Positions 9,423-27,287 of a DNA stretch of 33,511 nucleotides are shown here, piece after piece. Every line of letters begins with the position of its first letter. Position 1 is the stretch's first letter. Source of the stretch: a virus (Duplodnaviria > Caudoviricetes). Under the pieces are notes generated by a model. The model searched no databases. It worked only from the letters and a program-made list of their open reading frames with translations, and was not told where the DNA came from. Both the position numbers and the translations under genes were made by a program. Where the stretch lies: positions 1 to 33,511 of the IMG/VR virus record IMGVR_UViG_3300033983_000111. One strand, written 5' to 3'.

Positions 9423-9923
9423 ATGCCAAAAACACAATCGGAACGGCGCAGGCTGAAAGGCTTGACCGTCAACTTGTTTTCAACCCACACACTTCTGGGG
9501 TGGAACGTGATCCGGCAGGTCACGGCACGCGAGGCCCTGGAAAAGGTCGCGCTTAAAAAATGGCGCGAGATCTGGTATGAGAACGGGGACCTGGCGGGCG
9601 TGCAGCCACTCAAAGCTGAACAACCCAAGACGCTGGGCGATGTGCTGACTGAGTGCTTGATCGGAGTAACGATCACGCTCAATGAAGTGCAGCGCAATGC
9701 CGGACTGTTTGGTCCCTCGCATACGATCGGCATGCCGGAGTGGAAGCGGCTCAAGCGGCACGCGCGATTCGACGAGAAACAAATACTGCCGCCGGAAGAT
9801 GCCACCGAGCGGGCGATTGAAAAAGTCAGGCAATGGCCGTATCCGGCGTCGAGGATTGACGACGGAAGCGGCCTTCCTGTGTACGGAGACCGCGCCGTAC
9901 GCTGCTATCCACATCCAGCCTGA
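9423..9923 (+). CDS. Hypothetical protein (late-regulator position)
   Basis: 166 aa ORF between the XRE gene and the membrane genes; no recognised motif. Confidence 0.65.
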   Translation: MPKTQSERRRLKGLTVNLFSTHTLLGWNVIRQVTAREALEKVALKKWREIWYENGDLAGVQPLKAEQPKTLGDVLTECLIGVTITLNEVQRNAGLFGPSHTIGMPEWKRLKRHARFDEKQILPPEDATERAIEKVRQWPYPASRIDDGSGLPVYGDRAVRCYPHPA

Positions 9924-9934
9924 AAGAGGTCGAC

Positions 9935-10159
9935 GTGAGCCCATGGGTGCAAGTGGTCGTTACGGTTGCGTTCAGCGCATTAGTACAGCTTGTGATTGGC
10001 GTTGCAATTGTGGCGGCGATGAAACAGCAGGTCGCGGATTTAGTTGGGTGGGTTAAAGGCCTGGCCATGGATGTGAAGGATTTGCAAAAAGGCCGGACAG
10101 ATCATGAGGGCCGAATTGCGCATGTCGAGGGAAGGCTCGGGATTCCGCGGGAATCCTAG
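9935..10159 (+). CDS. Small single-TM plus coiled-coil protein (holin-like)
   Basis: RBS agagg; hydrophobic VVVTVAFSALVQLVIGVAIVAA; tail DHEGRIAHVEGR; lysis-cassette position. Confidence 0.6.
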   Translation: MSPWVQVVVTVAFSALVQLVIGVAIVAAMKQQVADLVGWVKGLAMDVKDLQKGRTDHEGRIAHVEGRLGIPRES

Positions 10160-10171
10160 AAGGGGGCGGGG

Positions 10172-11008
10172 ATGTTGAATCCGTTCAAACTTTTGGCAAT
10201 TTACAGCGACCTCAACAAGATGGAGGGCGTGGCAAAGGAGAAGGCAACAATGAAGGTGAAGGTTCCGCAGTTATCGGCGCTGTTTGTGAGTTTGTCGGCG
10301 ACGATCGGATTGCCGACGATGGTGACAGGCTGGGTGCAGGCGCACTTTGCGATCTATCTAACAATTGTGGCGGCAGCGGTGGTGCTGCATGCGCTGATGC
10401 CTTCGGTATTTTCGGCTCCGAGCGCGGCGGATATGCAGGCGACGGGGCTGAACAAAGTCGGCTTGGTTCTGCTCATGATCGGACTGGGCGCATTGTGCGC
10501 GGGCCGTCTGCAGGCGCAGACAATGGTACCAATTCCGGGCACTCCGACTGTGACGGCGGCAACCTTCACTGGCGGTTCGGATGTGATCGCGCTGCACTAC
10601 GCCGGGACCTGGGGCACGGGCAATTTGACGACAGAGAGTTTTGATCTGATGGATTTCGGCAAGACGAAGAGCGAGCATCTTTTCCTTGAGGGTAAAGAAC
10701 TGATCGGCGCGCAGTCGGGGATCAACGCATATACCGGTGGCGTGAAGTTTCAGCCGGATCTGAGCAAGTTGCTCGCGAAGACCAACGTCTCGCCAAACAG
10801 CTTCGGCCTTTATTTCAGCGGATCCGGTGGTGTGGGAACGCTGAATGCGGGAGGTTCGCATCTAGCCTACATGGTTGGCGGCGGAATTGAATACCGGGCA
10901 AACTCGACGCTTAACTGGAATCCGCTGCAGGTGCAATTTGTGCGAATCGGGAATCAGAATGCCGCGGTAATCTCGACGGGGCTGTCGTTTTTGTTCGGGC
11001 AGAAGTAA
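10172..11008 (+). CDS. Fusion protein: two TM helices, internal signal peptide, outer-membrane beta-barrel-like domain
   Basis: Two hydrophobic segments, then KVGLVLLMIGLGALCAGRLQA|QT, then alternating strands (LAYMVGGGIEYR, ISTGLSFLF). Confidence 0.65.
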   Translation: MLNPFKLLAIYSDLNKMEGVAKEKATMKVKVPQLSALFVSLSATIGLPTMVTGWVQAHFAIYLTIVAAAVVLHALMPSVFSAPSAADMQATGLNKVGLVLLMIGLGALCAGRLQAQTMVPIPGTPTVTAATFTGGSDVIALHYAGTWGTGNLTTESFDLMDFGKTKSEHLFLEGKELIGAQSGINAYTGGVKFQPDLSKLLAKTNVSPNSFGLYFSGSGGVGTLNAGGSHLAYMVGGGIEYRANSTLNWNPLQVQFVRIGNQNAAVISTGLSFLFGQK

Positions 11009-11013
11009 CAAGG

Positions 11014-11211
11014 GTTTATCGAGATTCCATAAACAAAGAGAGGGATCGCAGTTCGGAAGAGAAAGATCGGGAGGATTCCCGTCCGGGAGATCGTCGAGAC
11101 TCGGATGCAGTACCAAGGACAAGCGACGAACCGGTCAATCTCGCAGTTTCCGAGATCCCAGTATCAGCAACAACGGCGGAGCTGAGTAGCGAAATGCGAA
11201 AGGCTCCGCCG
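11014..11211 (+). ncRNA. Candidate structured non-coding RNA
   Basis: Nested stems gggatc/gatccc, tcggaa/ttccga, gaga/tctc, gatcgg/ccggtc, tcgtcg/cgacga; separate hairpin cggcggagc/gctccgccg with an AGUA/GAA internal loop. Confidence 0.45.
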
Positions 11212-11351
11212 CGTGGGTTTGAGGGTGTGCAATGAACTGGACGTACTCGCAATCATCGGGCAAGGTGATGGCTGCTATGCAGGCGGAATTTCGATGATCT
11301 TAGCGAAAACCTTTGGAGGGGATTTACGCACTCGATTCCCGGTTCGTCGAT

Positions 11352-11858
11352 TTATTCGGCGCTGCTTTTTTGCGGTTTCTTCCGCTGGCGCGGCGACTTT
11401 TGTTTTGCGGATGGCCGATATGCGAGCACAGAATCGATGATCTTATCAAAAACCTTTGAAGTCGGCGGTGATGGCTTTTCAAATGCTTCACCGCAAGCCT
11501 CGCGCAAGCGATGGAGCATGAACCATGCCGATTTCTGCTGTATGCCGATTTCCTTGGCGATCTGCATGGAAGAGAGGCTCTCGCGGCCGGTGGCCAGCAG
11601 GGAGATGGCGTAGAGCCATTTGTGAAGCGGGATGTGCGATCGCTCGAAGATGGTGCCGGTACGGATGGTGAAATCGAGCTGGCAGCGATTGCAGCGATAG
11701 AAGCCAGCCTTGCGGGGTGTGATGCGGTCGGCGCTGGCGCAGGTATGGCAGGTCGCGCCTTCAGGCCAGAGGCGCGACTCCAGGTAGAGCCGCGCCGGCT
11801 CCTCAGCGGGGAACACTTCAAACAATTTGAAATGGGGGATGGTATTTTTTACGCACAA
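11352..11858 (-). pseudogene. IS1595-family transposase fragment (Zn ribbon plus HTH, DDE domain absent); ORF still open
   Basis: YLESRLWPEGATCHTC..YRCNRC..FTIRTGTIFERSHIPLHKWLYAI..SSMQIAKEIGIQQKSAWFMLHRLREAC; AAGGAG then TTG at 11858. Confidence 0.85.
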
Positions 11859-11900
11859 ATCATGCTCCTTGCAGTGCAGCCGCAACCATCGCGGCGGAGA

Positions 11901-12473
11901 TTAAAGGGTTCCACGCTTGAGCAGTGAACGCAAGCGCTGGGATGCTCCAATCGATATTCCGAATTTCTGGGCGACCCAACCATGTGGAAGATCGCTCATC
12001 AAGAGGGCTTTGATCGCGGGCTCAGAGTACCATCCGTTGGGCCGTTGCCGGGGGCCGAAAAATGCAGTGTGCGCGATGCTCACATCGGATTGCGCTACAC
12101 TGTGCCGGCGGGAGAACGCCGCGCCAGAGAGAGCGCAGAGATCTGTGAGCCGATCGATCCACCATTGCTCATTCGCCAGGTACAGGTTGCAGCCGAGAGC
12201 GGCGCGTACGCGCTTGAGGCAGCTCCGGCTGGCGGGCAGATTGTATATGCTGCCATCGCGCGCAAACTTATTCTTTTCCCAGTAGGCATAGAGGGCTTTC
12301 GTGGGGATCAAGCGCGGCCCTCCGCACCCTTTTCCTCGCTGGGCATCGCCCGCGATTACGGGCCATCCAAAGAAAAGATCGAATCCATGTGAGGTTTGGC
12401 GCACTTCGCGCACGTCCCACGGAAAACCATCGCTATCCTCGATTTGCCCGATGATGATTGCTTTACGTGCCAT
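11901..12473 (-). CDS. Hypothetical passenger protein, possible C-terminal HTH
   Basis: 190 aa; RBS aagga; C-terminal LPHGWVAQKFGISIGASQRLR. Confidence 0.65.
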   Translation of the reverse strand: MARKAIIIGQIEDSDGFPWDVREVRQTSHGFDLFFGWPVIAGDAQRGKGCGGPRLIPTKALYAYWEKNKFARDGSIYNLPASRSCLKRVRAALGCNLYLANEQWWIDRLTDLCALSGAAFSRRHSVAQSDVSIAHTAFFGPRQRPNGWYSEPAIKALLMSDLPHGWVAQKFGISIGASQRLRSLLKRGTL

Positions 12474-12476
12474 CGC

Positions 12477-12794
12477 CTATCCTTCGATGATCCGTAGAAC
12501 ACGCGCTTCGCGGATGAGAATGGCACCATCTTCGGGGAGGCCACCATTGCGGGCTGCATCACCTTCGAGCCCTTCGATCAAAAGGAAAGAGGAGGAATCT
12601 GGCCAGTAGGATTTGCAGGCGCGAATGCCTTCAGCGATCTTCTCCTCAGAATCATCGGCGATTTCAAAGCAGCATGTGCCATCAAGCTCAGTGAGTTCAT
12701 CCACCCAATCGCAGGAAATCGGATCATGAAAACTGTTCGGCATGATCTGCCCAATCTCTTCCGTTTCAGTTGCCGTGCGGATGCCGTATTTCAT
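12477..12794 (-). CDS. Small acidic hypothetical passenger protein
   Basis: GAGGGG RBS then ATG 12794, downstream of a sigma70-like promoter. Confidence 0.7.
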   Translation of the reverse strand: MKYGIRTATETEEIGQIMPNSFHDPISCDWVDELTELDGTCCFEIADDSEEKIAEGIRACKSYWPDSSSFLLIEGLEGDAARNGGLPEDGAILIREARVLRIIEG

Positions 12795-12819
12795 TGCCTG
12801 ATCCCCCTCGGATGTTTCT

Positions 12820-12848
12820 AAGGTATTTGATTCCCGCACGTTTGTCAA
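12820..12848 (-). promoter_or_regulatory. Sigma70-like promoter for the minus-strand cassette
   Basis: TTGACA (12848-12843), 17-nt spacer, TACCTT (12825-12820). Confidence 0.7.
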
Positions 12849-12866
12849 GAAAAAAATTAAGGAAAC

Positions 12867-13205
12867 GTGGAATTTGATGACAATGCGACTGGCGAAGTGG
12901 CGGCGATGCAGTTTGCCGGCGGCCTCTCGATTGAGCGCGTGGCCGCATTGTGGGAGCGGGATACGGATTGGGTTGAGGCGGCGATTCGGCGCGCATTGCT
13001 TGAATCGATTCCGAGGCGCGATGGTGGAACAAAGCTATCGCGGAGTGAGGCGCGCCAGGCGCAGAAGCTGGAGATCACGGCTGAGCGCGTGCCGCAGGCC
13101 GGGCTGGATTTTGGAGAGGCTCGGCTAGTTGAGGGTGCGAATCCCTCTAAAGGATTTCAGTATGAGGGGAAGGCTGACTCCCAGGCAGGCGATCTTTGCG
13201 GCTGA
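12867..13205 (+). CDS. Hypothetical HTH-like protein carrying a duplicated TerS segment
   Basis: GLSIERVAALWERDTDWVEAAIR (HTH-like); ARQAQKLEITAERV shared with TerS; start codon uncertain (GTG 12867 or ATG 12906). Confidence 0.5.
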   Translation: MEFDDNATGEVAAMQFAGGLSIERVAALWERDTDWVEAAIRRALLESIPRRDGGTKLSRSEARQAQKLEITAERVPQAGLDFGEARLVEGANPSKGFQYEGKADSQAGDLCG

Positions 13206-21034: not shown

Positions 21035-22063
21035 ATGGAAACCTTGAAGAGATTTTCGCTGTTTCTCCTGGTTTGCGCCTTTGCCACGGCATTGCACGCG
21101 CAGACCATGCTGACCACTACCACGCTCACTTCGGCTGTTGGCAACACCGTTTCATCGGCGTTGACGACAGGCAACCTGGGCATGGTTGTGGTTGCCTCCG
21201 CCACCGGCATAAGCGCGCCGACGGCCAACAGTGGCAATGTGGCGGGATTGGCCACGTCCGGCGGATCCACTTATCTTTACGTCGATCGAGAGCTGATGCA
21301 GGTGGAGTCTGTGAGCGGCACCACGATCACAGTTATTCGCGGGGTAGGTTCGACCGCCGCTGCATCGCACGCTTCCGGAGCGCTGGTGTTTGTTGTTCCC
21401 GCTGCAGCCGCGGCCAATTGGGGGGTGCCCTTCGGCACCACGGACTGGGGACCGCAGGGAAGCTGCACGCGGGCGAATGAATTGTATTTGCCACGTATCG
21501 CTTTCACTTCGGGCAATATCTCCGATTGCCAGGGAGGCCAGTGGATGCAGGGCGATTCGGCCCAGACGACGCGGCCCGTATGGTACCGCGCTTACAGCCC
21601 GTCGCCAGGCGCGCAGGCCTCCAGTGCTGTGTTTGGCACCAACTCGACGCTCGTCCAGTACTCGACGTATTGCACCGAGATCGATGTGGGGTCGAGCAAG
21701 CTGCTGACTGGGCTGGCCCCGCACGTGGGAACAACCGGCGGCACAGACAAGTGGGTCGTCGGCCTCTATGACAATGGCGGCAACCTGCTGGTGGGTTCGG
21801 CGGCAGCTGGTGTGACGGTTGGATCCGCTTACGCGTGGCAGGCAACGGCTTTTACGGCGCCCTATTATGCGGTTGGACCGGCTCAGTATTACGGCTGCTT
21901 TACCACCAACGGGACAACGGCAACCGCTGATTTGGTCACAACTTCCAAGGGTGACTACGTGCTGACCCAGTCCAAGACCGGGACAGGTTTCGCACTTCCC
22001 GCATCCATTACGGTTCCGACCGGATTCACGAACGTCTCCGGCGCTTATCTGTACGCCTACTAA
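21035..22063 (+). CDS. Thr/Gly/Ser-rich beta-strand protein with a Sec signal peptide; putative capsid decoration or accessory protein
   Basis: AAGGA RBS; METLKRFSLFLLVCAFATALHA|QT; YVDRELMQV..TITVIRG..AASHASGALV; immediately after coat. Confidence 0.7.
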   Translation: METLKRFSLFLLVCAFATALHAQTMLTTTTLTSAVGNTVSSALTTGNLGMVVVASATGISAPTANSGNVAGLATSGGSTYLYVDRELMQVESVSGTTITVIRGVGSTAAASHASGALVFVVPAAAAANWGVPFGTTDWGPQGSCTRANELYLPRIAFTSGNISDCQGGQWMQGDSAQTTRPVWYRAYSPSPGAQASSAVFGTNSTLVQYSTYCTEIDVGSSKLLTGLAPHVGTTGGTDKWVVGLYDNGGNLLVGSAAAGVTVGSAYAWQATAFTAPYYAVGPAQYYGCFTTNGTTATADLVTTSKGDYVLTQSKTGTGFALPASITVPTGFTNVSGAYLYAY

Positions 22064-24871: not shown

Positions 24872-25216
24872 ATGGCGATCACGGCAAAACCCGTATTCGC
24901 GGCGATGAGCTACACGGATCCGAGGACGGGTGCGCTGACGGCCGGCGGCCAGCAGGCGCTGGCGCAGTGGGCGAACGCAATCAACTCGATCCCTATCTCG
25001 GTATCGGGCGAGCAGGTGAAGGGCGCGGGGAAGGCCTGGACTCTGGCCAACGTGCCAAGCGGCAACGTATCAGTGCTAGGGATCGGCGCAAACGGGCCGA
25101 CACCGCTGACGCTTGGCAAAGGAAATGCGTGGAACTTCAGCATCGACGGCGGCAACATTACCACTGAACAGGAATTTGAAGGAGTGACAGCATCCTATGA
25201 ATATGCGCAGAGTTAG
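24872..25216 (+). CDS. Small tail protein (needle/plug position)
   Basis: Abuts the gp10-like stop; TDPRTGALT N-terminal motif; short beta-rich C-terminus. Confidence 0.6.
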   Translation: MAITAKPVFAAMSYTDPRTGALTAGGQQALAQWANAINSIPISVSGEQVKGAGKAWTLANVPSGNVSVLGIGANGPTPLTLGKGNAWNFSIDGGNITTEQEFEGVTASYEYAQS

Positions 25217-27287
25217 AAAAACAGTGGTGAGTGGTGAGTGGTCAGTGGTGAGTCTGCTCTGTGGCCTTCTGATCGCGCTTGCCTGTGTGAGCGCCTCGTC
25301 CCAGGTTGCAGTGTCGCCCTTCAAGAGCCCGCATGTGACCTTTACGGACCAGAACGGCGTGGCGCTGGCGGGCGGATGTGTATTTACTTATTCGGGAGGA
25401 ACGTCGACGCCTCTGGCGACGTTCACTGATTACACCGGAGGAACCCCGAACTCGAATCCGGTGGTGCTGGACGCGACGGGAAGCGCAAACATCTGGCTCG
25501 GCCCATATACTTACAAGTTTGCGATCTGGAGCAACGGAGGCGCAAACTGCGCAAGCGGCGCACTGCAATGGACGGTGGACCAGGTTCCGGGAAACGTGTT
25601 CAACAATACAACGATCAACGGGGGGACCTGGAACGGAGGAACGATCACTGGCGCGGCTATCAGTGGGGGAACGATTACCGGCGCAACTATCACCAACAGC
25701 ACGATTGATTCGTCGCCGATCGGCCAGACAGTGCCAGCCTCCGGATCTTTTACGTCCGTGGCCAGCGCTGTGGACGCAATGAGCTTCAGCTCGACGCCCG
25801 TCTTTCCGGCCGGGTCTTACGGATACTTTACGATGACGCTGACGAATAACGTCACATCATCGAGCATTACCGGCGGAACGAATGGACAATTGATTACCTT
25901 TGATTTTTGCCAGAATGGCACGGGCCAGGTTGTTGGAGGGCAGACAACAGGCTTCACTTTCGCATGGCCGTCGAATTATACGAATCCACCCATCGTCAAC
26001 CCTGTTTTGAATTCCTGCACAATTGCAACGGCTTACTATAATGGAGGATTTTGGATAACGGTTACGAGCAACACGCAGTTGATGCTCGGCAATCTGGAGA
26101 TATTGAGCTTCACCTCGACGCCTGTTTTTCCTGCATCCAGTTATTCGAATTTCTACCTCACGCTGACTAACAATGTAACCTCCAGCACTATCACGGGCGG
26201 ATCGATAGGGCAAGTGGCGACGATTGACATCTGCCAGAATGCCACGGGAACCTATACGTTTGTCTGGCCGACGAACCTGATCAACGCTCCCCCGGTGCAA
26301 TCGAACGCGGGCAGCTGCACGAGCGTGGTAGCTGTTTACAACGGGACAAACTGGAACACGGTGTCAAGTTCCTCGACCGCGACGACGACGCCGCTGACGG
26401 GTAATTTTGATCAAATCCCCTTTACCGCGACTCCGATATTCAATGCCCAGAGCTACAGCGCATTTGCAATGACGCTTTCTGGAAATGTCACATCGAGCAC
26501 GATCGCCGGGGGCGCCAGCGGCCAATTGATCTCGATCATGCTGACGCAGGGATCATCCTCAACCACGGCCCCGGTATCAGCGCCCACCTATTCCACGCTG
26601 ACGACTGGCGGCAACCTTCCCGGAACTACGGCTTATTATGCCAAGTGCTCTTACCTGTTTGGCACGGTTGAAAGCCTCCCTAGCGCGGAGGCGACGGAGA
26701 TGACGGGATCGGGAGCGACGAACTCTATAACATGGAACTGCCCATCTTATGCGGGCGTGACTACTTACAAGTTTTACATCGGTACAGGGACGGGCGCGGA
26801 GAATTACTATTTTACGACATCGAGTTCCTCTTACATTCAGATCAACGTGCCGAGCGCCGGAACCGCGGGACAGCCGCTGACTACGGGAATTTACACGGTG
26901 GCATGGCCCGCCAATATGATCAACGCGCCGATCCTGGCTTCGGGCATCGGCAGTACGACGGGGTTGACGGCTGTATTCAACGGCACGAACTGGGTGGTGG
27001 TGGGTTCAAGTGGAACCCCAACGCAACAGGTCTCGCGCGCGTGCTCGGGAGGCAACTGCTACACGGTGCTTTGGGATGGAACCAAGCTGGAATGGGGGAC
27101 GATGTGCGTGGGCGGAAATGGATCGGTAACCTTTCCGCTTGCTTTCAACACCCAACCCGCGGTGATGATTCCACCCGCCGAGGGCGATTTGTTTCTCAAT
27201 GGACCCACGGTGATCACGGCGACCGGCTTCTCTATCACGTGCAGTTCGGCTTCGATCGCTAACCAGTGGTTTGCGATAGGCAACTGA
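25197..27287 (+). CDS. Tailspike/fibre-like protein: signal peptide, head-binding-like domain, three internal repeats, C-terminal fibre-tip domain
   Basis: FTDQNGVALAGGCVFTYSGGTSTPLATFTD..NSNPVVLDATG..IWL..YKF; three F..TP.F..LT.NVTSS.I.GG..GQ..WP.N..NG..W repeats; LEWG..VTFPLAF..WFAIGN. Confidence 0.8.
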   Translation: MNMRRVRKTVVSGEWSVVSLLCGLLIALACVSASSQVAVSPFKSPHVTFTDQNGVALAGGCVFTYSGGTSTPLATFTDYTGGTPNSNPVVLDATGSANIWLGPYTYKFAIWSNGGANCASGALQWTVDQVPGNVFNNTTINGGTWNGGTITGAAISGGTITGATITNSTIDSSPIGQTVPASGSFTSVASAVDAMSFSSTPVFPAGSYGYFTMTLTNNVTSSSITGGTNGQLITFDFCQNGTGQVVGGQTTGFTFAWPSNYTNPPIVNPVLNSCTIATAYYNGGFWITVTSNTQLMLGNLEILSFTSTPVFPASSYSNFYLTLTNNVTSSTITGGSIGQVATIDICQNATGTYTFVWPTNLINAPPVQSNAGSCTSVVAVYNGTNWNTVSSSSTATTTPLTGNFDQIPFTATPIFNAQSYSAFAMTLSGNVTSSTIAGGASGQLISIMLTQGSSSTTAPVSAPTYSTLTTGGNLPGTTAYYAKCSYLFGTVESLPSAEATEMTGSGATNSITWNCPSYAGVTTYKFYIGTGTGAENYYFTTSSSSYIQINVPSAGTAGQPLTTGIYTVAWPANMINAPILASGIGSTTGLTAVFNGTNWVVVGSSGTPTQQVSRACSGGNCYTVLWDGTKLEWGTMCVGGNGSVTFPLAFNTQPAVMIPPAEGDLFLNGPTVITATGFSITCSSASIANQWFAIGN
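25222..25253 (+). repeat. Heptamer tandem array, copy 7 (inside the signal-peptide coding region)
   Basis: cagtggt-gagtggt-gagtggt-cagtggt-gagt, translated TVVSGEWSVVS. Confidence 0.88.

Follow-up and report, generated by a model that had tools for sequence, protein, structure and literature searches.

Why should a phage gene that stands in the place of a lysis cassette encode, in a single reading frame, a holin-like pair of transmembrane helices, an internal signal sequence and an outer-membrane beta-barrel? The gene in question occupies positions 10172-11008 of the virus record IMGVR_UViG_3300033983_000111, the whole 33,511 nucleotides (nt) of which are referred to here as the window, and its source is a P22-like phage of Acidobacteriota. 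The lysis-cassette polyprotein as such is real, conserved and undescribed. As to its role, the answer that we favour, at a probability of about one half and as judged from sequence and context, is that the protein joins a holin-like module to a barrel, that signal peptidase I would cut it after Ala115, and that the freed barrel would do the work of spanins at the outer membrane during lysis. The cassette and the parts of the protein, with lengths in amino acids (aa), are arranged as follows.

9935-10159, plus strand: 74-aa one-helix coiled-coil protein, XhlA/BhlA-like by architecture; match to phrog_5225 (unknown function), E 3.5e-4
10172-11008, plus strand: polyprotein gene for a holin-like module, an internal signal and an outer-membrane barrel; 278 aa, or 252 aa from Met27
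10157-10249, plus strand: first ribosome site, Met1 and the 26-residue N-terminal helix of the long form; anti-Shine-Dalgarno duplex -10.8 kcal/mol
10235-10252, plus strand: second ribosome site (AAGGAG within Lys-Glu codons) and Met27; -8.7 kcal/mol; dual-start motif
10250-10432, plus strand: two-helix inner-membrane module, residues 27-87, from hydropathy; holin-like by size, topology and context
10451-10516, plus strand: internal signal peptide, residues 94-115; signal peptidase I cut predicted after Ala115
10517-10564, plus strand: Thr/Pro/Ala-rich linker, residues 116-131, of low predicted local distance difference test (pLDDT) score
10565-10996, plus strand: predicted 8-stranded outer-membrane beta-barrel (barrel A), from AlphaFold2, Foldseek and VIA
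10754-10801, plus strand: conserved 16-residue insert (PDLSKLLAKTN...) between strands 4 and 5, presumably periplasmic by OmpA-type topology

The initial annotation, made from the bare sequence, had read a holin-like transmembrane pair, an internal signal and a barrel in this one open reading frame (ORF) and had suggested a comparison with the Ail, Lom and OmpA barrels; the reading is borne out by hydropathy and structure prediction. In the AlphaFold2 model (36-row alignment), N-terminal helices are followed by eight antiparallel strands at residues 132-275 with pLDDT of ~79-95, and the Foldseek search with this model is led by NspA, OmpA, Ail and OmpX, with NspA 1p4t as the best match (E 1.6e-7). 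VIA-align superimposes NspA with Z 16.9 and a root-mean-square deviation of 2.1 over 130 aligned residues and OmpA with Z 16.1, the top eight barrels all lying at Z 15-17, and residues 132-275 are confirmed, at the level of a predicted model, as an eight-stranded barrel of the OmpA/NspA type. The C-terminal S-x-G-x-x-F-x-F, which we take to be the beta-signal pattern, is well maintained (S268 in 85%, G270 in 87% and F275 in 83% of 155 sequences), and by motif counts the family has both the export signal and the C-terminal signal of outer-membrane barrels. At the sequence level, none of 36 members matched an outer-membrane protein (OMP) family profile (Pfam Ail_Lom, OmpA, OMP_b-brl) at E<=0.1, and the best PDB profile match was OmpA 2jmm at E 0.09. 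With PagL/PagP-type catalytic His/Ser/Asp residues in mind, no histidine was found above 57% in the 155 barrel-A sequences. The loops on what is probably the outer face have median lengths of only 2, 4, 5 and 3 residues by DSSP boundaries; Ail, Lom and OmpX use long extracellular loops in adhesion, and the loops of barrel A do not fit this pattern.

Homologs of the protein numbered 50 in a first search and 202 representatives at E<=1e-3, and the family set used here comprises 197 proteins and 175 loci, with 105 non-redundant loci (58 fused, 47 non-fused), with the exported domains, called cargo below, merged at 90% identity from 296 to 266 items. After merging, barrel A is fused to an N-terminal module in 94 proteins and stands alone in 65, with 7 unclassified. 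Fusion is a family trait, and the homologs thus keep the arrangement that had been noticed in one copy, being neither always split nor starting at the internal Met. Two other cargo types are frequent, namely barrel B (fused 31, stand-alone 20, unclassified 2), which also has eight predicted strands at Z about 15-16 and no sequence homology to barrel A detectable by HHalign (probability 3.3%), and the helical lipoprotein C (fused 27, stand-alone 19); a fourth type occurs once. Clustering of the fused N-modules gave 9 clusters with several members and 12 singletons. Of these 9, 8 are found with two or more cargo types, and the module of the window occurs with all four; 103/105 loci hold a single cargo type each. 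A separate N-module-like gene lies within 3 kb in 20/47 non-fused loci (6/6 for barrel A), as against 1/58 fused loci, there a spurious match; the 27 non-fused loci with no module match may contain modules outside the profiles used. An exchange is seen in L012 (barrel A) and L074 (barrel B): the 1470 nt that end at AQA/Q are 99.3% identical between the two, and identity is 94.9% beyond the cargo; since different barrels are joined at the same AQA/Q, what is exchanged is the mature domain.

The lipoprotein C family (L114:6001-6900, P0046, P0048, P0104, P0154, P0176; loci L114-L175) is found in lysis cassettes, either stand-alone or fused via an internal lipobox, the latter arrangement implying that signal peptidase II would cut after two helices. 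It has no family name, its ESM Atlas clusters are likewise unnamed, and some members have twin-arginine-like signals (L020, L149, L150). Directly downstream of it, in several cassettes, are phospholipase D-like genes, some with export-signal-like N-termini (L134:6997-7695, L156:7351-8160, L173:3279-3965). Another cargo type, a subtilase (Peptidase S8) domain, is joined to a holin-like module at L020:7942-9276, and genes for a lipoprotein and a stand-alone barrel follow downstream.

How the barrel is joined to the helices decides between several readings of the protein. The Kyte-Doolittle peaks of the 278-aa protein fall at residues ~34-52, 58-80 and 96-111, and the third of these segments is preceded by Lys95 and ends in G-R-L-Q-A115/Q116, Ala115 and Gln116 being nearly invariant among homologs; signals and helices were assigned from hydropathy, motif counts and the AlphaFold2 model. 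A small-x-small/Q motif follows the third segment in 91/94 fused and 59/65 stand-alone barrel-A proteins, compared with 34/234 control upstream helices, and in 27/27 fused proteins with lipoprotein C as cargo a lipobox occupies the signal position instead. Of 153 fused proteins, 145 have exactly three hydrophobic segments; with an even number of helices before it, the signal is in export orientation, and the succession of even helices and an n-h-c signal with a small residue at -1 is that of a signal-cleaved polyprotein. Signal peptidase cleavage after Ala115, giving an inner-membrane part and an outer-membrane barrel, as had been proposed for this gene, is therefore a reading that the motifs make likely.

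The same initial proposal had offered a bridge across both membranes as the other outcome. An uncleaved or slowly cleaved form could act as an inverse unimolecular spanin that fuses the membranes once the wall is gone, and the fusion of 94/159 barrel-A proteins to many different modules is in line with this, as is the Leu at -3 in this copy, a suboptimal residue for cleavage; yet the cleavage motif is kept as well as in the stand-alone signal peptides and recombination falls at the predicted cleavage site, so that we give this form only a slim chance. As a general mode, bridging fails because 65/159 barrel-A proteins stand alone with an ordinary signal peptide and no membrane module, and because the linker is short, with a median length of 13 aa (91 fused barrel-A proteins). 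That the barrel is an ordinary Lom-like gene starting at Met88 (MQATG), with the upstream helices an incidental read-through, is hardly credible. While stand-alone barrels exist and Met88 stands just before the signal in this copy, the residue is mostly Thr in homologs, it lacks a ribosome site (-3.5 kcal/mol), and close homologs keep the module at 60-79% identity. A linker ATG is present in only 8/58 fused loci, and a linker start at -4.5 kcal/mol or better in 5/58 fused loci as against 38/45 stand-alone genes; among 1196 internal start codons the background was 15.7%. It is Met27 instead that is conserved as a second start.

The AAGGAG of this second start lies nine bases 5′ of Met27. In 22/22 non-redundant loci of this module family a further start, preceded by a ribosome site, lies 25-27 codons into the gene, and both the Met1- and the Met27-type sites are present in 20/22; the second ribosome site is kept even though the residues that it encodes vary (KE or EKG). 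The 26-residue N-terminal extension is likewise conserved in frame across homologs and is a helix in the AlphaFold2 model. Translation from both Met1 and Met27 is thus likely, to the extent that such motifs predict use, and the dual-start motif is one found in some holins. The two holins of SPP1 also have dual starts, each with its own ribosome site (PMC6316719). A second N-module family (L038, L013, L025, L026, L078, L081) also has two ribosome sites, 12 codons apart. Small size, one to three helices and a position beside an endolysin, as in holins, are all seen in the relatives, the present record being without a lysin, and the other modules of this slot also exist as separate genes beside stand-alone cargo. 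For this N-module none of 3 candidates of 30-151 aa was a stand-alone short form, P0117 and P0161 (94 aa) possibly being cut by contig ends. The small holin-like gene that had been reported upstream is present as the 74-aa protein with one helix and a coiled coil, and it is likely a second holin component; 12 other loci have a homolog of it close to the cargo gene. A complex prediction for the N-module and this neighbour gave a score of 0.00, which we count neither for nor against.

The lysis setting can be read from the relatives. For this count we kept the 85 loci with 1.5 kb or more of flank on each side, dropping 20 shorter ones, and our own hidden Markov models (HMMs) placed a lysin within 1.2 kb in 62, with 57 from library-supported families and 5 labelled by eye, and Pfam added 5 nearby lysins to give 67/85 within about 1.2 kb, as opposed to 17/1090 control points at least 3.5 kb away. 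By cargo, a lysin accompanies barrel A in 19/21, barrel B in 17/28 and lipoprotein C in 31/36 loci, a comparison that favours barrel A because the lysin HMMs were seeded from its neighbours. By Pfam these lysins include Tlde1, peptidase M15, SleB-like hydrolase, phage lysozyme and glucosaminidase, and one neighbour family matches the PDB lysozymes 1am7 and 3d3d. Tlde1-domain (L,D-transpeptidase-like) proteins occur in the endolysin position of many phages (L005:2302-2670, loci L188-L267), 159 viral loci being matched, and two putative lysin families in the same position have no Pfam or PHROG match (L017:11090-11596, L045:337-732, L057:25-498), apart from one weak T4-lysozyme match at E 0.06.

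By its relatives' loci, then, the gene sits in a lysis cassette, as initially supposed. The accompanying claim that no endolysin is in view stands for the window, where Pfam on 42 genes and 136 six-frame ORFs and PHROGs found neither an endolysin nor a spanin and where tblastn and HMMs from the relatives' lysins found no lysin, but it falls as a family trait, with the lysin in 19/21 full-flank barrel-A loci within 1.2 kb; the idea of an endolysin-free device is contradicted by these adjacent lysins. What occupies the slot here is the following.

11009-12866, minus strand: insert in the endolysin slot, 1859 nt; the same slot measures 633-881 nt, with a lysin, in L002, L006 and L029
11352-11885, minus strand: IS1595-like fragment; PF12760, phrog_12823 and phrog_18666 listed for the insert
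11204-11219 and 11884-11899: 16-nt inverted repeats flanking the IS1595-like fragment
11901-12473 and 12477-12848, minus strand: two unknown genes in the insert
12867-13205, plus strand: conserved gene before the terminase small subunit, the right-hand marker of the lysis slot; its cluster is common to L002, L006 and L029

Since this insert fills the slot where relatives have a lysin, the missing endolysin is not evidence of endolysin-free release, and the lysin of this phage is either displaced or outside the record. Only the zinc-ribbon part of the IS1595-like fragment is recognised, and a 52-nt direct repeat lies at 11267 and 11410 (77%). No joint removing the insert whole was found in the four DNA runs that carry it, contigs being able to show presence only.

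The place of spanins was approached from the side of the endolysin, for which the best 80 of 159 Tlde1 loci were taken, leaving 61 after merging; cargo was counted as a barrel or lipoprotein C, and spanin-like as an 'F' gene (Rz-like) or a lipoprotein resembling o-spanins. Cargo alone is present in 17 of these loci, a spanin-like gene alone in 16, both in 0 and neither in 28 (Fisher p 0.0028, an optimistic value because the 17 cargo loci take in the 10 from which the search was seeded and because loci that are related do not count independently). In the 105 cargo loci, HMMs for F (Rz-like) and o-spanin-like genes gave 0 matches, and a crude lipobox scan for an embedded Rz1-like lipoprotein matched 14/105 loci, none of them Rz1-like by eye. 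A replacement is seen in L218 and L221, which are 83.6% identical along 1461 nt that take in the endolysin; after this stretch L218 has F and L221 a barrel-B fusion. The lipoproteins of L244 and L260 match the PHROG Rz-like spanin family (E 5.5e-21 and 3.7e-22) and those of L259/L265 an unnamed family. Taken together, the mutual exclusion of cargo and spanin-like genes is suggestive rather than decisive. The 'F' family (L199:3060-3707, L203:2883-3515, L216:2543-3166) has an N-terminal helix, a coiled coil and a hydrophobic C-terminus, with no o-spanin partner seen, and the 'F' protein may be a single-gene spanin of another topology. Another long helical protein of lysis cassettes with or without a barrel, the 'E' family (L024:5503-6204, L178-L180, L182, P0198-P0241), has a conserved V-W-G-C after its N-terminal helix, possibly an unusual lipobox. 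It was considered as the obligate inner-membrane partner of the barrel and rejected, since it accompanies barrels in 5/105 loci plus L182 and occurs without barrels in L178-L180.

Superinfection exclusion, already named at the outset as a possible role, is a live rival to this reading, and one that we hold unlikely without dismissing it. Here, too, the protein would be cleaved, but the barrel, made late, would only ride on holin translation and would protect the cell or the progeny by exclusion or by blocking receptors. Llp, Cor, Lom and Bor are factors of this exclusion or receptor-blocking type; the fold class is that of Lom, Ail and OmpX, and barrels and lipoproteins are both known products of phage conversion. 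The swapping of cargo as a cassette between near-identical phages also resembles that of specificity modules, and the gene is intact here though no endolysin is seen. It is the outer loops of only 2-5 residues, the presence of the same barrel in phages with different packaging modules (a P22-like portal here, HNH/terminase neighbours in L005, L016 and L022) and the otherwise unexplained failure of cargo and spanin-like genes to co-occur that speak against exclusion.

The mechanism that we envisage for a lysis role would begin with two ribosome sites that yield 278-aa and 252-aa forms, the motif being present and the longer form possibly serving as an antiholin-like regulator. Helices 1 and 2 would form a hairpin, placing helix 3 in signal-peptide orientation, and the barrel would be exported, cleaved and inserted into the outer membrane by the beta-barrel assembly machinery (BAM), with the membrane part left in the inner membrane, where, by analogy of architecture with XhlA/XhlB, it could make up a two-part holin with the 74-aa neighbour. 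Once the lysin has removed the wall, the accumulated barrel would destabilise the outer membrane or draw it onto the inner membrane, and in barrel A the conserved periplasmic insert might grip the inner membrane at this stage; this is the weakest step. Fusion would fix the co-expression of both parts and would not be needed for function. An undescribed outer-membrane breach at lysis is likely because the relatives' barrels adjoin wall-cutting enzymes and never occur with spanin-like genes, and disruption of the outer membrane by the barrel itself is favoured by context only.

Several observations weigh against a lytic barrel. No small closed OmpA-type barrel is known to break membranes, and no periplasmic tether was found in the barrel protein. 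The 16-residue insert has the lowest mean entropy of 15 segments (1.95 vs 2.11-2.62 bits, 155 sequences), which is a small margin, and the role proposed for it is not general because the barrel B model has only short turns between strands. No N-module matched a curated holin family. On the side of context, 18/85 loci have no recognised lysin nearby, this record and L018 among them, the L003/L004 lineage, merged into the L040 cluster before counting, also has none, and 5 of the 67 lysins belong to families labelled by eye. Finally, 28/61 endolysin loci, from the best 80 of 159, have neither class, and the 'F' family is only weakly assigned as Rz-like, at PHROG E values of 0.0045-0.037, the best match of one member being a holin.

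The larger generalization is tentative and somewhat doubtful: the small integral barrels and helical lipoproteins of Acidobacteriota phages would be outer-membrane lysis factors of a new class, acting with no covalent or spanin-type link to the inner membrane. A dual-start holin would deliver them as its tails, released by signal peptidase, and they would be exchanged as cassettes with spanin-like genes. Membrane-spanning iso-diabolic-acid lipids account for 27-49% of fatty acids in the tabulated Occallatibacter-Telmatobacter-Terracidiphilus strains (PMC12935467). If the class is real, one may speculate that spanin-free lysis suits hosts rich in such lipids, which could hinder spanin-type fusion. 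More concretely, the family provides candidates for the outer-membrane breach in spanin-less phages, with two barrels that share no detectable sequence homology and a lipoprotein in the spanin slot, and one translation product supplying both membranes via signal peptidase I or II would bear on how Sec, BAM and the lipoprotein pathway handle cargo behind a polytopic protein.

The remainder of the record agrees with a P22-like head module, recognised by Pfam and PHROGs.

Start 13129: terminase small subunit (Pfam/PHROGs)
Start 13698: terminase large subunit (Pfam/PHROGs)
Start 16500: P22 portal (Pfam/PHROGs)
Start 19713: P22 coat (Pfam/PHROGs)

The named homologs of the polyprotein come from Terracidiphilus, and the record's DNA is listed in four metagenomes, all peat, with no RNA dataset listed. 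The 278-aa protein has no Pfam or PHROG family, NCBIfam giving one sub-cut-off match, and it was found in 0/50,697 records of cultured phages. It is unlikely to be a host core gene, 7/401 genomes of the order being matched, 2 strongly and 5 via the helices alone. Directly upstream of the cassette, 9423-9923 is an unnamed 166-aa gene kept in 10 loci and placed like a late-gene regulator; a promoter and terminator scan gave results at chance level. Two virion-region genes on the plus strand, 21035-22063 (..ALHA/Q) and 25197-27287 (..SASS/Q), have good ribosome sites and signal-like starts, and the segment after the signal in the latter presumably resembles a tail-fibre head-binding domain. Such signal-peptide-like segments, together with large signal-bearing genes flanking the cassette in many relatives, could point to periplasmic virion finishing or release, the barrel stabilising or scaffolding the outer membrane as exported virion proteins are added; the linkage found, however, is to lysins and holin-like genes, and we consider this role improbable.

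In the titles and abstract openings covered by the paper searches, no description of this architecture was found. Several known systems share parts of it. Like the spanins, as these are described in PMC6139136 (Rz/Rz1; T1 gp11), the present proteins have a lysis-cassette position beside a holin and an endolysin and products aimed at both membranes, and the two appear to be alternative occupants of one slot; unlike them, the barrel protein has no lipoprotein anchor and no periplasmic coiled coil or beta domain joining the membranes. The order is also reversed, with the inner-membrane helices first, and the outer-membrane part is an integral barrel that is likely cut free. Neither spanin architecture applies, as the 278-aa protein has no lipobox or coiled coil and the window no Rz/Rz1 family match, and as, in contrast to a unimolecular spanin, its helices are N-terminal and its C-terminus is a barrel strand. 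According to the same source, ~13% of surveyed phage genomes have no spanins, and its section 15 leaves an OMP as o-spanin possible. The disruptin gp28 of phiKT (10.1101/515445) is a 56-aa cationic amphipathic peptide, whereas the present helix-plus-barrel protein, of 278 aa, combines a membrane module with an exported barrel of 8 strands. XhlA/XhlB of PBSX and gp24.1/gp26 of SPP1 (PMC6316719) similarly pair a one-helix coiled-coil protein with a two-helix protein beside the endolysin, and the SPP1 holins have an in-frame second start with its own ribosome site. In contrast, there is no XhlB sequence match here and only one relative's small protein matches XhlA, weakly (E 0.006), the host is Gram-negative, the starts are 26 codons apart and the two-helix protein has exported cargo. 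NspA, the OmpA N-domain, OmpX/Ail, OmpW and PagL share the fold (Z 15-17) and the C-terminal aromatic signal with barrel A, and differ in their 8-17% identity to it, in its very short outer loops and conserved periplasmic insert, and in its place in a lysis cassette, fused to holin-like modules. Lom of phage lambda presumably also belongs with these eight-stranded outer-membrane barrels. A likeness in processing is offered by the FbcH cytochrome b/c1 precursor of Bradyrhizobium japonicum, in which a polytopic protein is reportedly followed by an internal signal cut by signal peptidase; there both products are said to stay in the inner membrane, whereas here the second product would be an outer-membrane barrel or a lipoprotein of a phage.
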